Source: Candidatus Jordarchaeales archaeon (GTDB taxonomy: Archaea; Asgardarchaeota; Jordiarchaeia; Jordiarchaeales; Freyrarchaeaceae). From it: a stretch of DNA of 32,000 bases. Below the pieces are notes generated by a model that was not told the DNA's origin, made no database searches, and worked only from the letters and a program-made list of their open reading frames with translations. The stretch covers positions 14,356 to 46,355 of the forward strand of contig JAWAHN010000002.1 in assembly GCA_038889235.1 (NCBI GenBank). Reading direction: 5' to 3'. Every line of letters starts with the position of its first letter. The stretch's first letter is position 1. Below, piece after piece: positions 1 to 26,318 of the stretch. A program made the position numbers and the translations under genes.

Positions 1-401
1 CTCATCATCTGCTCGTGCTGAACTGTCATCTCCATTATGTCGTCCGAGCTTGCAAGCTTCATGGCGCTCTCCATGAGCCGGCCAGCTGCCTCCACGCTCT
101 CCTTAACCTGCACTATGTCGTGGGCCTGTTCTATGGCGAAGAGGCGCGCCTCAAGGTTCTCTATGAAGCCCGCATACCTGTTAAGGGCCCCAAGGTAGAA
201 GTAGTACCTTTTCAGGGCGAGCTCCGCGCCCTTCCTGTTCCCTGCCTTGAGGTAAGCTTTAGCGGTCTCCCTAGCCTTCAACGCCTGCTGCTCATACCTT
301 TTCGACTTAACTATCAGACTGTTAATCGTGGCCCTAATCTCACTAATCACTTGGTCCTTTGTTTTCGCCCTCTTGCCAAACAACTTTTCTCTGAAGCTCA
401 T
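1..401 (-). CDS. ESCRT-III (Snf7 domain) protein, Vps20/32/60-like (ESCRT-IIIB); 3' end runs off the window
   Basis: Not in the ORF track because it is open to the edge. Manual translation from ATG at 401: MSFREKLFGKRAKTKDQVISEIRATINSLIVKSKRYEQQALKARETAKAYLKAGNRKGAELALKRYYFYLGALNRYAGFIENLEARLFAIEQAHDIVQVKESVEAAGRLMESAMK... It has a short amphipathic N-terminus and the Snf7-type helix pattern (AK..LK.GN...A..ALKR; NLE....IE.A). GGAGG SD lies 7 nt upstream. Confidence 0.8.
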   Translation of the reverse strand, partial: MSFREKLFGKRAKTKDQVISEIRATINSLIVKSKRYEQQALKARETAKAYLKAGNRKGAELALKRYYFYLGALNRYAGFIENLEARLFAIEQAHDIVQVKESVEAAGRLMESAMKLASSDDIMEMTVQHEQMM

Positions 402-457
402 CTAAACGCCTCCCATCAAAACTAAACTTCGCCTCCCCCAGTTATTAAACCTCTCCC

Positions 458-3301
458 TCAAGGCATCCTACTGAGCATCTGCTCGAGCTCCCTGATCTTC
501 CTAAGCGCCTTCCTCATAAGGAAAGTGTACTCCTCCTCGCTCATCCTCCCGAGCGAATAGTACTCGTGCAGGCTCTGAAGGTACTTCCGAATCCGCTGTA
601 TCTTGGCGGCAACCTCCTCGCGCGAAGGAACCTCCTCGTCCCCCCCTCTACCAACACCGCCCTCAACCTCCTCAGCCTCTCTCTTCGCCGGCGGCGCCTC
701 AGCCGCGGTTTCAATTGGAGCCACCGGCGGAGCTACAACCCTCCTCCTCTCCCTCCTCGGTGGGGGCACCCACTCCCCCTTCACCTCTTTCAGCTCCTTC
801 TCCAAGGCACCTTTAAGCCTAGCCGCCTCCTCCCTACTGGGAGCGGTGACCTCAACGGCGACCAGCGTAGCGTCAACACTCAAACCCACTGCTGCAGCCA
901 GCCTCGCCGCACCTCTCCCCGCCAGGACCACTACCTCCTCCCCGGGTTGCTCGGAGACCTCCCATCCTTGGGACGCCAACACCTCCTTCAGCTTCCCGAC
1001 GACGAGCGACGGGTTAACTTTAACAGCCAACTGGAACCCCGACGACTCGGCCTTCTGCGACGGGTAGAGGTGTTCGTGAAACCTGTACTTAACCAGCCTG
1101 GAAAGGTAGTCGAGCGCCAAATCCTGCGGCACGTCGAGAACCCTGACGCCCACTGTTGGCTCAATCGTGGCTTCAGGCGGCCTAGCAGCCTCGCCCCCCT
1201 CCACGCCCCTAAATATATCCACCGCCTTTGTTTCGCTTACTTCAGACGGCTTAGCAGCTCCCTCAGCAGCCTCACCTCCTACCCCTTCAGCCGCTGTGCT
1301 GGGTGTGGCCTCCCTTCCGGCGTGTTTGCTCACACGCGGCCTAACCTTCACCACGAAGGCTCTCCCGGTCTCCGCCGACACGTCTGAGACCACTGCTACC
1401 CCGGTCGGAAGTCTGCGTATTAAGTCCTCAGCCAATTTTGGAACCACGTTAGGCGACCTCCTCCTGAAAGCCTCCACGTCCGCCTCGAAGACCAGTCTGT
1501 GTGCGATCACCACGTCTACTTGGGACAACACGCGGTCGTCTGTGGCTGAGGGCTGCTGTGTGGCGAGGACGAGGGCACACCCAGGCTTCCTCCCGAGAGT
1601 GGCGTACTCCACTAGAGGCTTTGAGGCAGCGGTCTCCCCCTTGGCTGGGATTAGCGTGTGCGCCTCGTCCACCATGAGCCACGTGACAGGTATACCCCCC
1701 GCCCCCTTACGCCCCGCCTCCTCAGCCCTCGCTTCCCTTTTCCTCCTCTCCAGTATCTTCCTCGCCAGCAGTCCTACCACGAGCCCCCGCAGCTCCCCGG
1801 TCAGCGTGCTGACATCTACCACCGACACGGTGTTCGGCTTAACTATTTCCTCCAAGGGTGTGCCTTCCTTCGAGAAAATCCCCCACCCCTTTGCCGCCAG
1901 CAGTCTCGAAACCACCGCCCTCCTCGTGTCCGGCTTAAACCCCCTCTCACGCGACAGTATCTCCTTTGACGTCTCAATGCACTCGATTAAGTCGTCGACG
2001 GAGTACTCGTCACCCTTACCCTCAACCTTCACCTCTCTCCCTTCTATGAAGGCGGCATACCCCTCCCTAACCTGTACCAGTGCCTTCTCGATCAGAAGTC
2101 CGGGTGGGCTGAACCTTTCAACACCGAAAGCGTAACACCAGTCGTCAACCGTCAAGTCCGACGGCTTCACGGAGAACGGCACATCCCTAGTTGTCTCCGG
2201 CAGCTCTCCATAAACCCCCAACGGGACGAAGACCCTGACATTGCTAAACCCCTTAGGCTCCAGCCCCCACTCCCTAACCCTCCTCAGCTCATCCGCCTCG
2301 CTGCTCGGCTGCTTCACGCTCCAGAACACACCAATCGGGTCAACTATGACGACCGCCACCCCAAGACCTGAACGCGCAATCTCCTCGGCTAGGACGCCCA
2401 GCGTGTAGGACTTCCCCGACCCCCGCTGGCCGCATATGAAGACAACGTGCGGCTTAAGCACGTCGAGAAGCACAGGGCGCCCCGCCAGCTCCCCCCTCTC
2501 CCATACGCGTCCAATATAGGCGAGCCCACGGCTCACCTCGCGCTCCTCCCTAGTCCTGCCGAGCACCACCCCCTCCCCCACCTCGTCCAACATCACCTCC
2601 AAGGGTGCCCCAACATCGAACACGTCTCCCGGAGCATCCCTCCTCCGCGCCCTCAACTCCCCTAAGAGAGCGGAGAGAGCCCTCCATACGTCTTCAGCAT
2701 TGTCCAAGCTCAGGGATTCAAACACCTTCTCCCGGTCACGCACCCCTTCCGGGTAAAAATTCGGGTCGAAGTTGCAGACCTCCCAGCATGCGAGCGCGGC
2801 ATCCTCTCCAAGCACGCCTGCTGCTTCATCGAAAAACCTTCTCTCTCCCGTCGCCCCGTAGAGCGCCAGAACCCCCCTGGCCCTCTCCACCCCGCTCAGC
2901 CTGTCCACAGCCTCCCTCATCTTCGACAATAACTCCCCACGCCCGGTAGCCCAGTAGACCTCCAGGAGTACTTGGAGGAGTGCCACGTCGACGTACGTTG
3001 TTCTGAAGGCGTAGTCGGCCAGTCTTCCAAGTGCCTCCTCAGTCCTCCCCCCGGGAGCCAGCCTTAGGGCGCGCGCTGCAGCGTTCAGCCTGCCCCCCGC
3101 ACTTCCTCCTTCAAGTATCATGCCGGCCAGCTTGTCCGCTTCGGCCACCGCTCTCTCCAAGAACTCTCTTCTACCGGTCAGCTGGTAGACTGCAGCGAGG
3201 GCGCAGGTTCCCTCCCCTCCCGAGAGGCTTAACACGTCAACCTTTCCCAGAATGGTGTGGAGTAGCTCGCAGACGGGTCTTCCTCTTTCAAGCATAGGCA
3301 A
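458..3301 (-). CDS. Multidomain HerA/FtsK-superfamily ATPase (DUF87/COG0433-like core) with N-terminal helical repeats and C-terminal alpha/beta plus SHOCT-like modules
   Basis: 947-aa ORF with PHVVFICGQRGSGKS (Walker A), IVDPIG, WLMVDEAH (Walker B), GRKPG and LATQQP motifs typical of HerA-like ATPases. Start is TTG 3301 or ATG 3295. Confidence 0.85.
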   Translation of the reverse strand: MPMLERGRPVCELLHTILGKVDVLSLSGGEGTCALAAVYQLTGRREFLERAVAEADKLAGMILEGGSAGGRLNAAARALRLAPGGRTEEALGRLADYAFRTTYVDVALLQVLLEVYWATGRGELLSKMREAVDRLSGVERARGVLALYGATGERRFFDEAAGVLGEDAALACWEVCNFDPNFYPEGVRDREKVFESLSLDNAEDVWRALSALLGELRARRRDAPGDVFDVGAPLEVMLDEVGEGVVLGRTREEREVSRGLAYIGRVWERGELAGRPVLLDVLKPHVVFICGQRGSGKSYTLGVLAEEIARSGLGVAVVIVDPIGVFWSVKQPSSEADELRRVREWGLEPKGFSNVRVFVPLGVYGELPETTRDVPFSVKPSDLTVDDWCYAFGVERFSPPGLLIEKALVQVREGYAAFIEGREVKVEGKGDEYSVDDLIECIETSKEILSRERGFKPDTRRAVVSRLLAAKGWGIFSKEGTPLEEIVKPNTVSVVDVSTLTGELRGLVVGLLARKILERRKREARAEEAGRKGAGGIPVTWLMVDEAHTLIPAKGETAASKPLVEYATLGRKPGCALVLATQQPSATDDRVLSQVDVVIAHRLVFEADVEAFRRRSPNVVPKLAEDLIRRLPTGVAVVSDVSAETGRAFVVKVRPRVSKHAGREATPSTAAEGVGGEAAEGAAKPSEVSETKAVDIFRGVEGGEAARPPEATIEPTVGVRVLDVPQDLALDYLSRLVKYRFHEHLYPSQKAESSGFQLAVKVNPSLVVGKLKEVLASQGWEVSEQPGEEVVVLAGRGAARLAAAVGLSVDATLVAVEVTAPSREEAARLKGALEKELKEVKGEWVPPPRRERRRVVAPPVAPIETAAEAPPAKREAEEVEGGVGRGGDEEVPSREEVAAKIQRIRKYLQSLHEYYSLGRMSEEEYTFLMRKALRKIRELEQMLSRMP

Positions 3302-3306
3302 CCCGG

Positions 3307-3927
3307 TTACAGCTCCTCTTTAAGCTTCTTGATGTCTTTCTCCAGCTCGGCTATCTTTCCAGCCGGCACGGAGGGCAGCTTAACCCCTGTCTCGACGCCT
3401 ATCTCCTGGTCTATCTCGGTCAGCACGTCCACTACTTCTTTCGTGGTGACGTCGGTGGACATGGCCATTTTCTCGAAGCCAGCTTCAGTCATGTCGTGAG
3501 CTATGTCGAACTCCCTCATCGAAGCATCTATCTCGTCCACAAGTTGAGCGACGTCTGGGAGGCTAACCGTGCTCTTCAACCCTTCAAGGGCCGCCTTTAT
3601 TCCGGAGAGCGTGCTGGCGACCTCGTAAACCGACTGGCTCTGCCTCAGCCTCACAACCATCCCTTGGATCCTCATTCTGTAAGCGTCTGTAGCCAGAGCC
3701 CACTTCTGGTACCTTAGGAAATGCTCGGCGTACATCTTCGCCGCGTCGTTGTTTCCAGCCATGCGGTAGCGCTTAGCCTCTTCCCTGCTCCTCTTAGCCT
3801 CCCTCTCGAGCTCCTTCTTGTGGTACTCGAGCTTCCTCGTGAAGACCTCCAGCTTGAATATAACGTCTTTGAGGTTTGGCCCCCCTTTGAGCCAGCTCAG
3901 AAACTTCTTGAATGACATGGAGACCAT
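3307..3927 (-). CDS. ESCRT-III protein, Vps2/24/46 (Did2/CHMP1)-like (ESCRT-IIIA)
   Basis: All-helical 206 aa. AKRYRMAGNNDAAKMYAEHFLRYQK...RIQGMVVRLRQ matches the CHMP1/Did2 pattern. It has an amphipathic N-terminus (MSFKKFLSWLKG), an acidic C-half and a terminal ELEKDIKKLKEEL helix. Alternative start ATG 3918. Confidence 0.85.
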   Translation of the reverse strand: MVSMSFKKFLSWLKGGPNLKDVIFKLEVFTRKLEYHKKELEREAKRSREEAKRYRMAGNNDAAKMYAEHFLRYQKWALATDAYRMRIQGMVVRLRQSQSVYEVASTLSGIKAALEGLKSTVSLPDVAQLVDEIDASMREFDIAHDMTEAGFEKMAMSTDVTTKEVVDVLTEIDQEIGVETGVKLPSVPAGKIAELEKDIKKLKEEL

Positions 3928-3958: not shown

Positions 3959-4534
3959 TTATAACGCTTTCCTAGAGTGCATCCTGCAGTCGATCTCGTG
4001 GTGAACCAGCGTCACACAGTGGCTGGCTAGGTATCTTCTCGGGCCAAGGGACACCCTTACAGCCCCAAGCCCTCCTAGGACATCTTCGTACTCCGGTGGG
4101 AGGTCCAGGTGGCTTCCCAGCACGAAAGCTGCATCAACAGGAAGGTCGACGCTCCACAAAGGAGCCCCCTCCTCGTGCAGGTAGAAGAGGGGCAACCCCC
4201 CGGCAACCATTCCTACGACTTCCCTGAACCCCGCGCGCTCCAACCTGAACCCGTCAACGCGCTCCCCGGCAAAAACCCTCCTGAGGACTCTGGCAACTCC
4301 GAGCTCTGAGCGCGGGACAGTCCCAACCTTCCAACCCTCGACAATGAGCGCGCTCGCTCCCTCATCGAGCACCGCGCAGAACAACGTGTCCCTCCTAACG
4401 CCGCCAGCCCCCGTCAGCGCCGCCACCAGGCATCTGCAGACGACGTCAAGCCTCCCCGAAGACCCAGGAAGGTTCTTCAAGCTGAACCCAGGCGAAGACC
4501 TCGCAGTTAAAGCCACGACGATGAACGCCCTCAA
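3959..4534 (-). CDS. trmY: tRNA (pseudouridine54-N1)-methyltransferase, SPOUT family
   Basis: FSLKNLPGSSGRLDVVCRC, YLHEEG, FVLGSHLD and VSLGPRRYLASHCVTLVHHEID motifs. Confidence 0.88.
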   Translation of the reverse strand: MRAFIVVALTARSSPGFSLKNLPGSSGRLDVVCRCLVAALTGAGGVRRDTLFCAVLDEGASALIVEGWKVGTVPRSELGVARVLRRVFAGERVDGFRLERAGFREVVGMVAGGLPLFYLHEEGAPLWSVDLPVDAAFVLGSHLDLPPEYEDVLGGLGAVRVSLGPRRYLASHCVTLVHHEIDCRMHSRKAL

Positions 4535-5326
4535 TCAACCCACCACCATGTGAACCCCTACGCAGCACAATAAAACGCCGAAAATCCTCCTCAGCCAAAC
4601 ACCGCTAATCTTGCCTGAAAGCGCGGAGCCAACTTGCCCCCCAATAGCCCCCCCAACACCCATAGCCAAGGCCAGCGCCAGGTTCACGTGGCCGAGGGAA
4701 ACGTGCACCAGCACCCCGGCAGCCGTCATAAAAATCATCGCGAGACACGATGTGCCGACAGCCACGTGAACCGGGACGCCGAGGCAGACGAGGAGAGGAA
4801 CCTGCACTACGCCCCCTCCAATACCCAGAAACCCTGAAGCCAAACCCGCTGAGAAGCCTCCAACCGTGACCAGCAAGAGGTTTAAGCCGCGACTCCTAAT
4901 CCGCCCCCCTCCCCCAAACCTACCGAAGCCCAAAATCATCGCCACCCCGACAGCCACGAGGCTTAAGGCGAACAACCAGCCAACCACCCTGCCGCTAACA
5001 ACACCGGTGAGCAGAGAGCCAAGCAGCGACCCGGGGATTGCCGACAACCCCAAGACCACCCCAAGAGGCCAGTCAAACCTCCCCCGCCAAATGTGGCCGA
5101 CAGCCGAGGACAAGGCGTTCATCCAAACGGCGACAAGACTGGACCCAACGCTGTCAACCACGCTCAAACCCCCCAAGTAATGCAGCAGCGGGACGTACAG
5201 GAAACCCCCACCGACACCGAGAAAGCCGCCAATCACTCCCACAAAGAAACCCAAAACAGACAGAAGAGCCAGCTCCAACGCCGACACCCCAGCCGCAGAC
5301 GACACACCAAAACACACCAAAAACAT
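4535..5326 (-). CDS. Sulfite exporter TauE/SafE family membrane protein
   Basis: Hydrophobic with duplicated G.GGG motifs (GGFLGVGGGFLYVP; SGFLGIGGGVVQVP) and AVGTS. True start may be GTG at 5287. Confidence 0.85.
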   Translation of the reverse strand: MFLVCFGVSSAAGVSALELALLSVLGFFVGVIGGFLGVGGGFLYVPLLHYLGGLSVVDSVGSSLVAVWMNALSSAVGHIWRGRFDWPLGVVLGLSAIPGSLLGSLLTGVVSGRVVGWLFALSLVAVGVAMILGFGRFGGGGRIRSRGLNLLLVTVGGFSAGLASGFLGIGGGVVQVPLLVCLGVPVHVAVGTSCLAMIFMTAAGVLVHVSLGHVNLALALAMGVGGAIGGQVGSALSGKISGVWLRRIFGVLLCCVGVHMVVG

Positions 5327-5903: not shown

Positions 5904-7401
<1,498 letters not shown>

Positions 7402-7623: not shown

Positions 7624-8793
7624 TTAGTGTGGTTTTAGTGGGGTTATGATGGCTGTTAGGGGTCCTTGTGGTGTGTGTGCTTTTTCTGAGACTATTTTTT
7701 GTATTCCTGCTGCTTTCGCTATTTGTTGGGTTATTTCGTCTAGGCTTATGTTGGTGTAGAGTGCTATGGTGTGGTTTTCTCTCATTCTTGGGAGGAATTG
7801 TAGTAGTAGTGGGTTTGCTTGTTTTCCGGTTTTGGGGTTGCATGGTGTTACCAGTATTCTTCTGCTTTCTGGTGTTGTTGCTGTTTTTTCGGTTGCGTAT
7901 TGGAGCTGGTTTACTGTTACTTTTTCTCCTAGGTCTGTTGTTCCTTCGTAGTTTTCGAGTTCTTCTACTAGTTCTTGGTCTGGTTGGAATGGTTCTGGTT
8001 TGTGGATTTTGAGCACGAGGTATAGTGGTTCGGGGTATTTTTCCGCGGCTTTTTTGGCCCTGCTGGCTGCATCTTTCACTGTTGCTGCCTCCACGATTAC
8101 GGGGCCTCCTGTGGTTTTCCTTTTTCCTCCGGTTGTCGGGGTTGTGGTTTGGCTTAGCGCGCTTTTCAGCTCTTCTTCGGCTGTCTTGTAAATGTGTGCT
8201 GACGCTGATATCGTGGTGGTTGTCCCAACGGATTCCACTCCTTTAATGTGTGAGGCTGCCTCTGTGAGGAAGGCCATGTTTATCCCTGCCACGTCTTCCG
8301 GCCATGCTCTCGCCATGTCGTTGCTTCTGATGTACGCGATGGCGTTGACCGTGTCTCCAAACCTGTGGAGAATTATCATGCTTATGCATGGCGGGTTAGG
8401 GTTGGAGGTGTCGGACGCCGGGTTCCAGAACTGTATCAGGGCGGTGTCGCTCCTCTTGAGCGCCTCTCCCGCTTTCACGACTTGGTTGACCCCGAACCTC
8501 TTTCTCGCGCACCACCCGTAGGTGTAGGTGTGCCCGCCTTTTTCAGCCGTCAGGTACTGGGGTATGTAGCTTTCCTTGAGCGTTTTCTCGTCCATTCCTA
8601 TGTAGCCGCGGGGGAGTATGGGTCCGCTCCTCCATGCTGTTAGGTGTATCACGCATCCTATTGTTTCGAGCGTCTCCTGCCTTTTGTCTTCCGTCGTCAC
8701 GGGTATGCCTTTCTCCAGTATCAGCCTGTTAGCCTGCCTCCAGGCTGCGTCCACGTGGCGCGCTCTTATAACGTATGGGCCGTAGGGTTTCAC
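7624..8793 (-). CDS. Thymidylate synthase-fold protein, tandem domains (catalytic N-domain plus degenerate C-domain)
   Basis: YTYG, NQV, FWNP, PPC(136), RSND(156-159) and SAHIY(198-202) are in the N-half. A second degenerate copy carries NQL..PESRR..NP..LLLQFLPR. GTG start overlaps the upstream stop (GTGA). Confidence 0.82.
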   Translation of the reverse strand: MKPYGPYVIRARHVDAAWRQANRLILEKGIPVTTEDKRQETLETIGCVIHLTAWRSGPILPRGYIGMDEKTLKESYIPQYLTAEKGGHTYTYGWCARKRFGVNQVVKAGEALKRSDTALIQFWNPASDTSNPNPPCISMIILHRFGDTVNAIAYIRSNDMARAWPEDVAGINMAFLTEAASHIKGVESVGTTTTISASAHIYKTAEEELKSALSQTTTPTTGGKRKTTGGPVIVEAATVKDAASRAKKAAEKYPEPLYLVLKIHKPEPFQPDQELVEELENYEGTTDLGEKVTVNQLQYATEKTATTPESRRILVTPCNPKTGKQANPLLLQFLPRMRENHTIALYTNISLDEITQQIAKAAGIQKIVSEKAHTPQGPLTAIITPLKPH

Positions 8794-10391
8794 TTTGCCT
8801 CCCTCACCTTATAGTATGGGTGGACTGGCCTAGGAAGTGTTCCGAGGACGTTGCGTGCCTCATCCGCCACGGCGGCTTCGGCTGCTGCCACTAGTGGGAA
8901 GACTTTCTCCGCGTTCCTGATGGGCCCGTAAAGATTGAGGTCCACTCCGTATAGTGACGGTAGAGCGTATATGAAGGAGAAGTCCATTTTCTGTCTGAGC
9001 TCGCGCGGCACCCCTGCAACCATGTTGTGTATGCCTATGGCTGTAGGGTAGCCGTAAAGCTCTTTAAACACCCACGCGGCGTGAAGTGCCTCTATGCCGC
9101 CCTCACCGAGTATCGGGACTCCTGGGTCCAGTATGGCTCCCTCAACAACCCCCCCAACCCCTGACAGCATAGTTTCAGCCTTCTTCAACCTTTCCTCTAG
9201 CGTGAAGCCGTAAGCCAGGATTATGGCGTACCTTACCGGCGCTATTCTGTGTAGGAGCTCAGTCTCCCTCCCACCGGACCCCGTAACCGAGTTGTACACG
9301 GTTCTGTGATCCAGCCCCACCTCCTTCGCCGTCTCCATCGCTTCGACGCGCGCCTCGAGACTTGTCGAGTCAATTATTATAGGCGCGTCTGTCACATCTG
9401 CTACGAAGAGCAGATACCTGGATAGTGCTTCACCCGTCTCGCCAACAACGTGGACCATTGATGGTATGCAGTACTCGTCTGAGAGCTCCGCCTGTCTGAC
9501 AACAAGCCCCTCGGCGGCCTCCTCGTCGAAGACCCCTCTAACTGGGTCCTTAACCACGGGATCCTTCCTGTAGAACAGCGTGCCAGCCAGAACAATGGAG
9601 TACTCACCCCTCTGCCCGCCGAGCTTAACCCCCGCCACGTCGTAAACCCTCAGCTCACTTCTCCTATAGAACAGTGCGCTCAAGGGCTCAGCCCCCCTCT
9701 CCCTCCACCATCCCCCCTCCATTAGGCGTGCAAGCGCCCCCCTCCAGTCGTACTTCTCCTCTTCGAGGGGCGGAATCAGGGGTGGCTCAGGGTACTCTTC
9801 AACATGCCTCTCGGCGAGCAGGCGCATTTGCGCCACTATCTTCTCCGGGCTCCTTTCCCCCCGCAAGTCCACCAGTTCGACCTGCCTCCTAAACCTCTCG
9901 ACGACCACGTGTGGCTCCCCCACCCTGAAGTACTTGGGGTGAAGGAATGGTATAGTCCCCTCGCTCCCGATAACCCTGTAATCCTGCCCTATGCCGTTTT
10001 TGTAGAGGGCCACGAGCGTCTGTCCCGGGGCGTGCCCCACAACCTCCTCACCACAGACGACTAGAAACCTTATTCTGTTGTTGGAAACTATGTTCTGAAT
10101 AACCCTGGCAACCCCGTCGTTCTCCGTCTCACACGGCCCAGCTATGGCTACGAGGTCGGCTGCCAGAGAAACAATTTTCTCCGGCAGGTCGTGCGAGCCA
10201 CACGTGACCACAGCGAAAGCCGCGTCATCCCTCCCAACCACGTAGTCCCCTGAAATGTACGGCCATTTCGCCACATCAACCACCGCGTTGAAAGGTGTTC
10301 GCCCAAACAACACGGCTACATCAAACTCAGAAAGAGCCGAGTTACATTTTTTACGCTCGGACTCAGCCCCTCCCGGGTTTAAGGAGCTCAC
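8790..10391 (-). CDS. MtrA-MtrH fusion (corrinoid-binding MtrA domain plus methyl-tetrahydromethanopterin:corrinoid methyltransferase MtrH domain)
   Basis: N-half: WPYISGDY..G, AVVTCGSH, GPCETEN.G..RVIQNIVSNNRIRFLVVCGEEVVGHAPGQ (corrinoid His kept), IGSEGTIPF. C-half: VYDVAGVKLGGQRGEY..VLAGTLFY, IIIDST, VYNS. Confidence 0.9.
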   Translation of the reverse strand: MSSLNPGGAESERKKCNSALSEFDVAVLFGRTPFNAVVDVAKWPYISGDYVVGRDDAAFAVVTCGSHDLPEKIVSLAADLVAIAGPCETENDGVARVIQNIVSNNRIRFLVVCGEEVVGHAPGQTLVALYKNGIGQDYRVIGSEGTIPFLHPKYFRVGEPHVVVERFRRQVELVDLRGERSPEKIVAQMRLLAERHVEEYPEPPLIPPLEEEKYDWRGALARLMEGGWWRERGAEPLSALFYRRSELRVYDVAGVKLGGQRGEYSIVLAGTLFYRKDPVVKDPVRGVFDEEAAEGLVVRQAELSDEYCIPSMVHVVGETGEALSRYLLFVADVTDAPIIIDSTSLEARVEAMETAKEVGLDHRTVYNSVTGSGGRETELLHRIAPVRYAIILAYGFTLEERLKKAETMLSGVGGVVEGAILDPGVPILGEGGIEALHAAWVFKELYGYPTAIGIHNMVAGVPRELRQKMDFSFIYALPSLYGVDLNLYGPIRNAEKVFPLVAAAEAAVADEARNVLGTLPRPVHPYYKVREAK

Positions 10392-26195: not shown

Positions 26196-26318
26196 AGCCC
26201 CGGCCGGGCTTTGAACCCGGGACCTTCTCATTTCTGGCATACCACCACTATAACGGGTACCAGTGAGACGCTCTAACCAGGCTGAGCTTTCCCGCTATAG
26301 ATGAAGGGGTACCGGGGC
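26196..26318 (-). tRNA. tRNA-Thr(GGU) with two introns: 22 nt at 8/9 (26289-26310) and 26 nt at 37/38 (26232-26257); CCA not encoded
   Basis: Removing both inserts gives a full cloverleaf: acceptor GCCCCGG/CCGGGGC with U73, D-stem GCUC/GAGC, anticodon stem UCUCA/UGAGA with loop CUGGUAA, and T-stem CCGGG/CCCGG with loop UUCAAAG. Both inserts form 4-bp helices with 3-nt bulges. Confidence 0.9.

Follow-up and report, generated by a model that had tools for sequence, protein, structure and literature searches.

What is a HerA-type ATPase doing between two ESCRT-III genes of an Asgard archaeon? ESCRT-III and Vps4 are treated as the complete, conserved scission core common to archaea and eukaryotes, with Vps4/CdvC serving as the MIT-AAA+ ATPase that disassembles ESCRT-III. 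The locus described here lies in a window of 32,000 nucleotides (the whole stretch of DNA that was analyzed) and is an ESCRT-III operon of a Jordarchaeales (Asgard) archaeon, in which three co-oriented genes on the minus strand encode ESCRT-IIIA, a HerA/DUF87-family P-loop ATPase and ESCRT-IIIB. The first-pass annotation had recognized this triad and read it as a candidate Vps4-independent ESCRT system. The three genes exist as it described, and Pfam and PDB profile matches agree with the identities that it gave them; the proposed independence from Vps4 did not survive the analysis.

ESCRT-IIIA (Vps2/24/46- or CHMP1/2/3-like; 3307..3927, minus strand) is 206 aa long as an open reading frame and matches Pfam Snf7 (PF03357) at 69.9 bits against a cut-off of 27.3 (E 2.7e-19). 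The second ATG, at 3918, is probably the true start and gives 203 aa; both a Shine-Dalgarno-like GGTGG and the start positions of orthologues favor it. The ATPase gene (458..3301, minus strand) encodes 947 aa and leaves a spacer of 5 nt to ESCRT-IIIA if translation begins at a TTG, as first annotated. A start at the ATG at 3295 is likelier (945 aa, spacer 11 nt), since the database protein of identical sequence is 945 aa. ESCRT-IIIB (Vps20/32/60- or Snf7-like; 3..401, minus strand) starts at 401, a measured 56 nt past the ATPase stop as previously noted, with a GGGAGG motif 7 nt upstream of its start. The window holds the first 133 of ~213 aa, which match Snf7 at 41.2 bits (cut-off 27.3; E 1.8e-10). 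Immediately left of the window, a run of ~100 N with exactly duplicated flanks is read as an assembly join, and ESCRT-IIIB continues past this scaffold gap to a stop (remainder at G000:C2:13888-14256). The first-pass annotation had named a Vps4 gene immediately off the window as grounds for rejecting its proposal; none is there. To the left lie genes for proteasome alpha, SUI1, S17e and Cdc48, together with an ORF of 493 aa that has no Pfam match. Upstream of the triad, a TrmY-like tRNA methyltransferase (3959..4534, minus strand, 31 nt from its downstream neighbor) and a TauE/SafE permease (4535..5326, minus strand, 0 nt from its downstream neighbor) were assigned by Pfam/NCBIfam. This order recurs at two other loci (L074 and L070), and its confinement to Jord- and Frey-type genomes suggests that both genes probably stand outside the ESCRT module.

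Profile matches support the assignment of the two ESCRT-III proteins to different paralogous groups, ESCRT-IIIA as Vps2/24/46-like and ESCRT-IIIB as Vps20/32/60-like. The best PDB matches of ESCRT-IIIA are CHMP1B, CHMP1A, CHMP3 and CHMP2A (E 2e-11), and those of a full-length ESCRT-IIIB orthologue (82% identical) are the Heimdall ESCRT-IIIB, a 'Vps20/32/60-like' protein and yeast Snf7 (E 2e-12). ESCRT-IIIA carries a KFxxWLKGG motif at the N-terminus and, at the C-terminus, LPSVP followed by ELEKDIKKLKEEL, conserved in an alignment of 11 orthologues. Judged by eye against the MIM1 and MIM2 consensus, we take LPSVP to be MIM2-like and ELEKDIKKLKEEL to be MIM1-like; by the same comparison, the EPEVPSEPP that precedes an acidic/basic helix in the off-window C-terminus of ESCRT-IIIB is presumably MIM2-like. 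The triad's ESCRT-IIIA and ESCRT-IIIB are the sole Snf7-family genes above the cut-off in six genomes (this one and 5 genomes from 5 other families); in family f32 the second of the two lies ~18 kb away.

The ATPase belongs to the HerA family by several measures. It matches Pfam DUF87 (PF01935) at 41.1 bits (cut-off 23.2) and HerA_C (PF05872) at 26.3 bits (cut-off 22), and a PDB profile search returned HerA helicases at E 2e-13 to 5e-9. Walker A (GQRGSGKS, 291-298), Walker B (LMVDEAH, 542-548) and the TQQP motif (581-584) are all intact, and G291, R293, G294, S295, G296, K297, S298, D545, E546, A547, H548, T581, Q582, Q583 and P584 are invariant in 10 orthologues; judged from these motifs, the motor is catalytically intact. 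The ATPase shares this RecA-like P-loop core with the HerA of HerA-NurA(-Mre11-Rad50) end resection and with anti-phage HerA (PDB 4d2i, 8xau, 9x1l), down to the Walker A/B and TQQP motifs, and has predicted beta strands at the place of the HerA HAS barrel. Conversely, it is about twice as long as HerA, bears a unique toroid N-domain and a C-terminal alpha+beta domain and hairpin, and falls far below the NCBIfam equivalog cut-offs for canonical HerA (58.9 versus 800 bits for NF040937; 43.2 versus 970 for NF040819).

Domain folds were taken from AlphaFold models (pLDDT 89.0 and 84.8) combined with fold searches. Residues 1-225 form an acidic, alpha/alpha-toroid-like N-domain, for which all of the top 50 fold matches are alpha/alpha toroids (Z 8-12). 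Beta strands at ~226-282 occupy the place of the HerA HAS barrel, where the model has three short strands at 245-280 (pLDDT 61-84) and where profile positions ~245-314 also match many proteins of varied length and architecture in a protein library search. The ATPase core (283-670) is followed by an alpha+beta, TBP/KA1-like C-domain (721-839), a disordered linker (840-893) and a C-terminal helical hairpin (894-946). Fold matches of the C-domain are TBP/KA1/adaptin-appendage-like at Z 8-9.6, near the noise level of the tool. A full-length N-domain occurs in only ~14 of 1.84 billion representative proteins, and those that look complete all share one architecture of 870-1017 aa. In a tree of the ATPase core the long-form Asgard proteins cluster together (SH-aLRT 89), with a non-Asgard clade devoid of Snf7 neighbors as their sister.

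The gene order is what ties this motor to ESCRT-III. The triad, or ESCRT-IIIA and the ATPase alone, recurs in seven Asgard families, with ESCRT-IIIA directly upstream and ESCRT-IIIB downstream of the ATPase in f1, f2, f24, f25, f4 and f18, and with only ESCRT-IIIA adjoining it in f32. The same arrangement is found in 20 of the 28 metagenome contigs carrying the long form of the ATPase, as well as in NCBI contigs under the names Jordarchaeales and Helarchaeota; at one locus (L072) genes overlap by 4 nt. Adjacency is absent from the f23 genome loci and from f6, f7 and f33, and at E≤1e-60 the ATPase itself is missing from about three quarters of the Asgard genomes searched, including all 135 of the largest family (f9). 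ESCRT function therefore does not require the ATPase. The Snf7-HerA adjacency remarked on in the first-pass annotation is thus kept across divergent Asgard families and metagenome contigs, which supports a real functional link between the ATPase and ESCRT-III.

Canonical Vps4 is present alongside this motor. The same genome encodes a Vps4 with MIT, AAA and Vps4_C domains (G000:C1:976.7-977.9 kb), beside Vps25 and on a different contig from the triad, as well as a Vps28-EAP30 gene pair, so that Vps4, ESCRT-II (Vps25, EAP30) and ESCRT-I (Vps28) accompany ESCRT-III, with the components spread over three loci. In families f25, f32, f18 and f4, the triad's ESCRT-IIIA has as its neighbor a MIT-domain gene on the opposite strand; it is Vps4, at ~390-400 aa where complete (a contig end cuts the f4 copy). 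Vps4 is distant from the triad in f1 and f2, and a Helarchaeota contig (L064) places the ATPase within a full ubiquitin/ESCRT-I/II/Vps4/ESCRT-III cluster. The genome also encodes two FtsZ genes, and ESCRT-III may for this reason not be the cell-division machinery in this archaeon.

The explanation that best accommodates these results, held tentatively, is that the ATPase serves the ESCRT-III machinery of Asgard archaea as a conserved accessory motor, working beside canonical Vps4 and not replacing it. The observations behind it are what the three genes encode, motifs that are intact, an order that is conserved, a Vps4 in the same genome and accessory domains found in this clade alone; ring formation, physical recruitment and the substrate are the parts that we infer.

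The alternative that survives best keeps the link to ESCRT-III and changes the substrate: the motor would act on protein. It could remodel, extract or nucleate the ESCRT-III polymers, making it a second ATPase for their disassembly or turnover, or it could translocate a cargo protein in the manner of EccC, the FtsK-like ATPase in type VII secretion. We consider this possible, if on the unlikely side. The ATPase gene sits between two filament-subunit genes at near-zero spacing, and certain lineages encode, 3' of it, an all-helical partner of ~350 aa. The clade-specific domains, the acidic toroid and the TBP/KA1/adaptin-appendage-like domain, resemble protein- or membrane-binding modules, and no accessory domain looks like any known module for binding DNA. 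The N-domain, with a net charge of -3 to -22 across the orthologues and acidic in all of them, fits the binding of protein better than that of DNA. Further, no nuclease or DNA-binding partner adjoins the ATPase, which lacks the NurA, Sir2 or other nuclease neighbor of canonical HerA systems; the four NurA genes of the genome are all away from the triad, two of them (C1:219203 and C2:153424) each ~1 kb from another HerA paralogue. Against a protein substrate, the MIT-bearing Vps4 is retained in every genome checked and both ESCRT-III tails carry what we read as MIM-like motifs, so a second disassemblase has no obvious need. No characterized HerA-clade enzyme is known to unfold proteins, and the fold matches of the C-domain lie near the noise level, as given above.

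Improbably, the ATPase may have no part in ESCRT function at all, being a HerA paralogue for DNA repair or housekeeping that an inherited accident of gene order has placed here. Such a reading would suit the long-form ATPases that lie away from ESCRT-III in the f23 genome loci and f6, and the related core-only ATPases of DPANN, Hadarchaeota and MSBL1 archaea, which have no Snf7 neighbors. However, the IIIA-ATPase-IIIB order is kept in at least six families, between which the ATPase has drifted to ~35% identity and the more distant genes differ completely, the triad genes are tightly packed or overlapping, and the extra N- and C-domains are confined to this clade.

The original proposal, a Vps4-independent system with the ATPase sitting where Vps4 would be expected, finds no Vps4 gene near the triad in this genome or the sister family f2, but is very improbable given the canonical Vps4 beside Vps25, the Vps4 genes directly adjoining the triad in four other families and present in the Helarchaeota cluster, the MIM1-/MIM2-like tail conserved in ESCRT-IIIA and the MIM-like motif present in ESCRT-IIIB, and an ATPase in which neither Pfam nor fold searches detect a MIT domain.

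For the accessory motor beside Vps4, a mechanism can be proposed. ESCRT-IIIA and ESCRT-IIIB would polymerize at a membrane neck, and Vps4 would recycle both through their candidate MIM motifs. HerA-family ATPases form rings, and a HerA-like ring could be recruited to the ESCRT-III assembly by the clade-specific acidic toroid N-domain and TBP/KA1-like C-domain, joined in Jord and Frey lineages by the tethered C-terminal helical hairpin. The ring would then spend ATP threading a polymer through its pore. Family precedent weakly favors DNA as that polymer: the solved relatives that the PDB search matched are all DNA helicases or HerA. In two of six annotated contexts of the non-Asgard sister clade, an anecdotal count, a DNA helicase gene adjoins the ATPase (one UvrD/RQC/HRDC helicase and one Hel308, with overlapping genes); the recurrent neighbors at 52 core-only metagenome loci are unrelated housekeeping genes. 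The DNA may be cleared from the closing neck in the manner of FtsK or, alternatively, loaded into an ESCRT-made bud or vesicle. The clearing model follows from the analogy with FtsK/SpoIIIE, the septum-associated DNA translocase of bacteria, a fellow member of the FtsK-HerA superfamily of ring translocases; as with FtsK, genes of a membrane-constriction machinery accompany that of the ATPase, and their products presumably act together. Unlike FtsK, of which it is not an orthologue, it has no transmembrane anchor or FtsK-gamma and is linked to ESCRT-III, not FtsZ. Its likeness to Vps4/CdvC is that it is encoded beside ESCRT-III genes, whereas it is of a different P-loop class, has no above-cut-off Pfam match to MIT, AAA (PF00004) or Vps4_C, and coexists with a true Vps4. 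The full version of this model, in which several Asgard lineages have a two-motor ESCRT-III machine with Vps4 and a HerA/FtsK-type ring that docks on ESCRT-III and drives DNA through the closing neck, or out of it, is a speculative one and somewhat doubtful as a whole.

The components found here (ESCRT-IIIA, ESCRT-IIIB, Vps4, Vps25, EAP30 and Vps28) are those of the Asgard ubiquitin-ESCRT cluster (ESCRT-I/II, Vps4, ESCRT-IIIA and IIIB) catalogued by Hatano et al. 2022 (PMC9192718) and Makarova et al. 2024 (PMC10936438). The difference is the HerA-family ATPase (~900-1000 aa in its lineages) between the ESCRT-III genes. The words HerA, FtsK, DUF87 and P-loop are absent from the searched text of PMC9192718 and PMC10936438, and no description of a HerA-type ATPase within an ESCRT-III operon was found in the searchable literature; the ATPase seems to be a second ESCRT motor that has not been described before. 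The survey of Makarova et al. (PMC10936438) was anchored on Vps4 and only genes with diagnostic ESCRT domains were colored by Hatano et al. (PMC9192718). Surveys anchored in either way can miss conserved partners such as this one.

A second motor, from an ATPase class that typically pumps DNA, in the ESCRT-III operons of several Asgard lineages suggests a function that the eukaryotic model does not predict, for example scission coupled to the clearance or packaging of DNA, or an additional route for handling ESCRT-III polymers. The ATPase is a concrete candidate for work on the Asgard ESCRT proteins being reconstituted in vitro. Should the DNA-pumping model be true, it would mean that a prokaryote couples the handling of its chromosome or of DNA to ESCRT scission, as abscission-type clearance or vesicle DNA export, and such coupling would sit in the archaeal relatives of eukaryotes.

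Linkage of the HerA/DUF87 ATPase to ESCRT-III genes is more than chance. A relative of the ATPase is present in 106 of 400 Asgard genomes (E<=1e-60), and Snf7 genes lie on either side of it in the family of the window (f1), the sister family within the Jord/Frey order (f2) and families f24, f25, f4 and f18, while in f32 ESCRT-IIIA alone adjoins the ATPase and ESCRT-IIIB is ~18 kb off. The order ESCRT-IIIA, ATPase, ESCRT-IIIB is kept though ATPase identity drops to ~35% between lineages, the outer neighbours of the three genes are completely different between lineages, and in one fetched contig (L072) the genes overlap by 4 nt; a gene-pattern scan of genome contigs gave at least four loci. From metagenomes, 80 contigs were fetched by ATPase profile and 28 were classed as long-form (carrying more than the ATPase core) or Snf7-adjacent. 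A Snf7 gene occurs no more than three genes from the ATPase in 20 of these 28, several of the others having too little flank for a judgement; the remaining 52 loci, which share the ATPase core only and by definition have no Snf7 ORF, served as the comparison group. Snf7 adjacency is absent from the f23 genome loci and from f6, f7 and f33. In f9, which is the largest Asgard family sampled, none of 135 genomes was found to have the ATPase, and the module, though conserved, is thus optional.

The three genes named in the first-pass annotation are present in the window, all on the minus strand, and its assignment of the two ESCRT-III proteins to IIIA and IIIB holds because of their best matches among solved structures: CHMP1B, CHMP1A, CHMP3 and CHMP2A for ESCRT-IIIA, and the Heimdall ESCRT-IIIB and yeast Snf7 for a full-length orthologue of ESCRT-IIIB. 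ESCRT-IIIA (3927..3307; Pfam Snf7, 69.9 bits, cut-off 27.3) is probably 203 aa long, from its second ATG at 3918, since both a GGTGG motif and the orthologue starts point there. For the ATPase (3301..458; DUF87, 41.1 against 23.2 bits; HerA_C, 26.3 against 22 bits) the ATG at 3295 is the probable start, because an identical database protein has 945 aa, and with that start the spacer before it would be 11 nt and not the 5 nt given at first. ESCRT-IIIB starts at 401 and continues past the window edge, where a run of ~100 N (G000:C2:14258-14355, on the contig of the window) lies immediately left of base 1 and splits the gene. The flanks of this run are exact repeats of each other, such that ESCRT-IIIB residues 92–133 are encoded on both sides, and the run apparently marks a place where overlapping contig ends were joined in assembly; beyond it the gene reaches its stop codon, which brings the full protein to ~213 aa. 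Two elements ahead of the ESCRT-IIIB start were read by eye, TTTAATAA at 440–447 (minus strand), ~40 nt before it, and GGGAGG, 7 nt before it; from these the gene may have its own promoter within the string.

The arrangement had been proposed as a Vps4-independent ESCRT system with the ATPase in the place of Vps4, a proposal that is not borne out, as Vps4 occurs in the same genome and other Asgards have both the ATPase and Vps4. The genome (2.14 Mb, 8 contigs, 95% complete) encodes a canonical Vps4 of 389 aa (MIT, AAA, AAA_lid_3 and Vps4_C) on contig C1, followed directly by an ESCRT-II/Vps25 gene, with mutually adjacent Vps28 and EAP30 genes ~57 kb further along. With Vps4, Vps25, Vps28 and EAP30 present, the genome has a complete eukaryote-like ESCRT set, though split across three loci. 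The only Snf7-family genes in the genome are the two beside the ATPase; there are two FtsZ genes and no CdvA above cut-off. Exactly two Snf7 genes above cut-off also occur in each of five genomes from five other families with the ATPase beside ESCRT-IIIA, and in four of those families (f25, f32, f18 and f4) an MIT-domain gene, ~390–400 aa where complete and cut by the contig end in f4, adjoins ESCRT-IIIA on the opposite strand. One Helarchaeota contig carries, in order, ubiquitin, RING, UEV/Vps23, Vps28, EAP30, Vps25, Vps4, Snf7, ATPase (919 aa) and Snf7. Comparison with other Asgards thus shows the ATPase to be an addition to Vps4, and it is only in the Jord/Frey order (f1 and f2) that Vps4 has moved away from the three genes. 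The ESCRT-IIIA tail (LPSVP then ELEKDIKKLKEEL, conserved in 11 orthologues) and the ESCRT-IIIB tail (EPEVPSEPP) carry putative MIT-interacting motifs, as read by eye against the MIM1/MIM2 consensus.

Left of the window, the flank holds a 493-aa ORF and genes for proteasome alpha, SUI1, S17e, Cdc48 and a CBS protein, and no Vps4. The 493-aa ORF (G000:C2:12293-13774, +) has no Pfam match and is convergent with ESCRT-IIIB; a 484-aa gene, also without a Pfam family, occupies the equivalent place in a related Jordarchaeales contig (L074). Elsewhere in the window, a complete archaeal 16S rRNA gene lies at 5904–7400 (+; Rfam SSU_rRNA_archaea, 1507 bits) and no 23S match occurs anywhere in the 32 kb, and so the rRNA genes seem unlinked. 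An Rfam tRNA match at 26204–26288 (-), scoring 29.1 against a gathering score of 29 bits and covering model positions 9–63 only, may be an intron-bearing or split tRNA; ARAGORN found no tRNA in the window. Additionally, a single ORF of 533 aa at 8790–10391 (-) fuses MtrA (41–213) and MtrH (247–515) methyltransferase domains; the genome is not obviously that of a methanogen.

By its motifs the ATPase is an intact motor, with Walker A (GQRGSGKS), Walker B (LMVDEAH) and TQQP invariant across ten orthologues. A profile search of the PDB returned HerA-type helicases only (E 2e-13 to 5e-9), plus weak noise. The protein belongs to a family in which the solved structures are rings. The ATPase is distinct from the repair HerA: its scores against the NCBIfam equivalogs are far under their cut-offs (58.9 bits against 800), and the four NurA genes are all elsewhere in the genome, two of them beside other HerA paralogues. 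The closest named relative, from “Candidatus Jordarchaeales archaeon”, is 63% identical, which makes the host of the window an Asgard archaeon. In a phylogeny of the ATPase core, long-form Asgard proteins cluster (SH-aLRT 89); the sister clade (SH-aLRT 96) comes from DPANN, MSBL1, Hadarchaeota and other archaea, and the shorter f7 and f33 forms branch below both.

What is exclusive to the clade of long-form proteins is a set of accessory domains, delimited here from two AlphaFold models on 25-sequence alignments. The N-domain (residues 1–225; 11 helices, pLDDT 89) has only alpha/alpha-toroids among its top 50 structural neighbours (Z 8–12 over ~200 aligned residues), including GH88, GH76, GH105, cellobiose 2-epimerase, LanC and the alpha-2-macroglobulin thioester domain; an MIT-like receptor was considered and rejected, as the Foldseek and VIA-align lists give alpha/alpha-toroid enzymes only and MIT is absent from them. 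Residues 1–235 have no Pfam match and no usable match in an ESM Atlas feature search. Every orthologue has an acidic N-domain (net charge -3 to -22), and at full length this domain was found in only ~14 representative clusters among 1.84 billion proteins, where all proteins that look complete have the same 870–1017-aa architecture; it is therefore a signature of the clade. Short beta strands (226–282) follow at the position of the HerA HAS barrel. Beyond the core, an alpha+beta C-domain (721–839) resembles TBP-like folds (phosphoglucomutase C-domain), KA1 and the adaptin appendage platform, at Z 8–9.6, which is near the tool's background, such that these matches are used as description only. 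A disordered segment (840–893) leads to a confidently modelled helical hairpin (894–946), which the Jord/Frey lineages and one other possess but Hel-type proteins lack. SHOCT identity for this hairpin was rejected on sub-threshold matches only (GvpG, E 0.004; DUF1707 SHOCT-like, E 0.097), as was likeness to the ESCRT-I core and CdvA hairpins, where Z of about 9 is in the noise range for helical hairpins. Complex prediction for ESCRT-IIIA with the N-domain and C-region, each entered as an alignment, gave 0.23 against a mark of 0.32, a value that counts neither for nor against binding.

In f2, f32 and f23 an all-helical protein of ~350 aa without a Pfam family is encoded by the next gene after the ATPase, often with overlap between the two (contigs L070:7182-8249 (-), L071:6196-7251 (-), L065:6975-7955 (-) and L066:10212-11303 (+)). 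Searches with this protein did not find it in the genome or family of the window, nor in one f4 and one f25 genome, and it is unrelated to the ATPase C-region (hhalign probability 0.15%). In the f32 genome, ~700 nt past the 351-aa partner gene, L071:4744-5475 (-) encodes a 243-aa fusion of a RING finger (34–77) and an Arf/Ras-like small GTPase domain (83–217).

The ESCRT survey of Makarova et al. 2024 (PMC10936438) is anchored on Vps4, and that of Hatano et al. 2022 (PMC9192718) colours no genes but those carrying diagnostic ESCRT domains; the searched text of the two makes no mention of HerA, FtsK, DUF87 or P-loop. In full-text searches of the literature for ESCRT with DUF87, HerA or FtsK, nothing among the papers listed was relevant, judging from titles and abstracts, and the FtsK mentioned along with Asgard and ESCRT was the bacterial protein only.

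The ATPase is inherited together with the only two ESCRT-III genes of the cell, with Vps4 present as well. Its accessory domains would recruit the ring to ESCRT-III assembled at a membrane neck, and the ring would there thread a polymer through its pore. DNA is weakly preferred as that polymer because every matched solved relative acts on DNA and because, of six contexts with annotation in the non-Asgard sister clade, two have a DNA helicase beside the ATPase (one UvrD/RQC/HRDC and one Hel308, with overlapping genes). The main rival is that the ATPase acts on ESCRT-III polymers or protein cargo, for which the acidic extra domains, protein-binding in look, and the lack of a nuclease or DNA-binding partner both speak. 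The helicase contexts, besides, are only anecdotal, and the recurrent neighbours of the 52 core-only loci (TGT, an HMG-CoA-synthase-like protein, Cdc48, an EF-Tu-type (GTP_EFTU) GTPase and a PRC-barrel protein) are unrelated housekeeping genes with no common theme. The system is classed as Asgard ESCRT machinery supplemented by a conserved HerA-family motor, and with DNA as the threaded polymer this motor would perform an FtsK-like task, in which DNA is cleared or loaded where ESCRT-mediated scission occurs.
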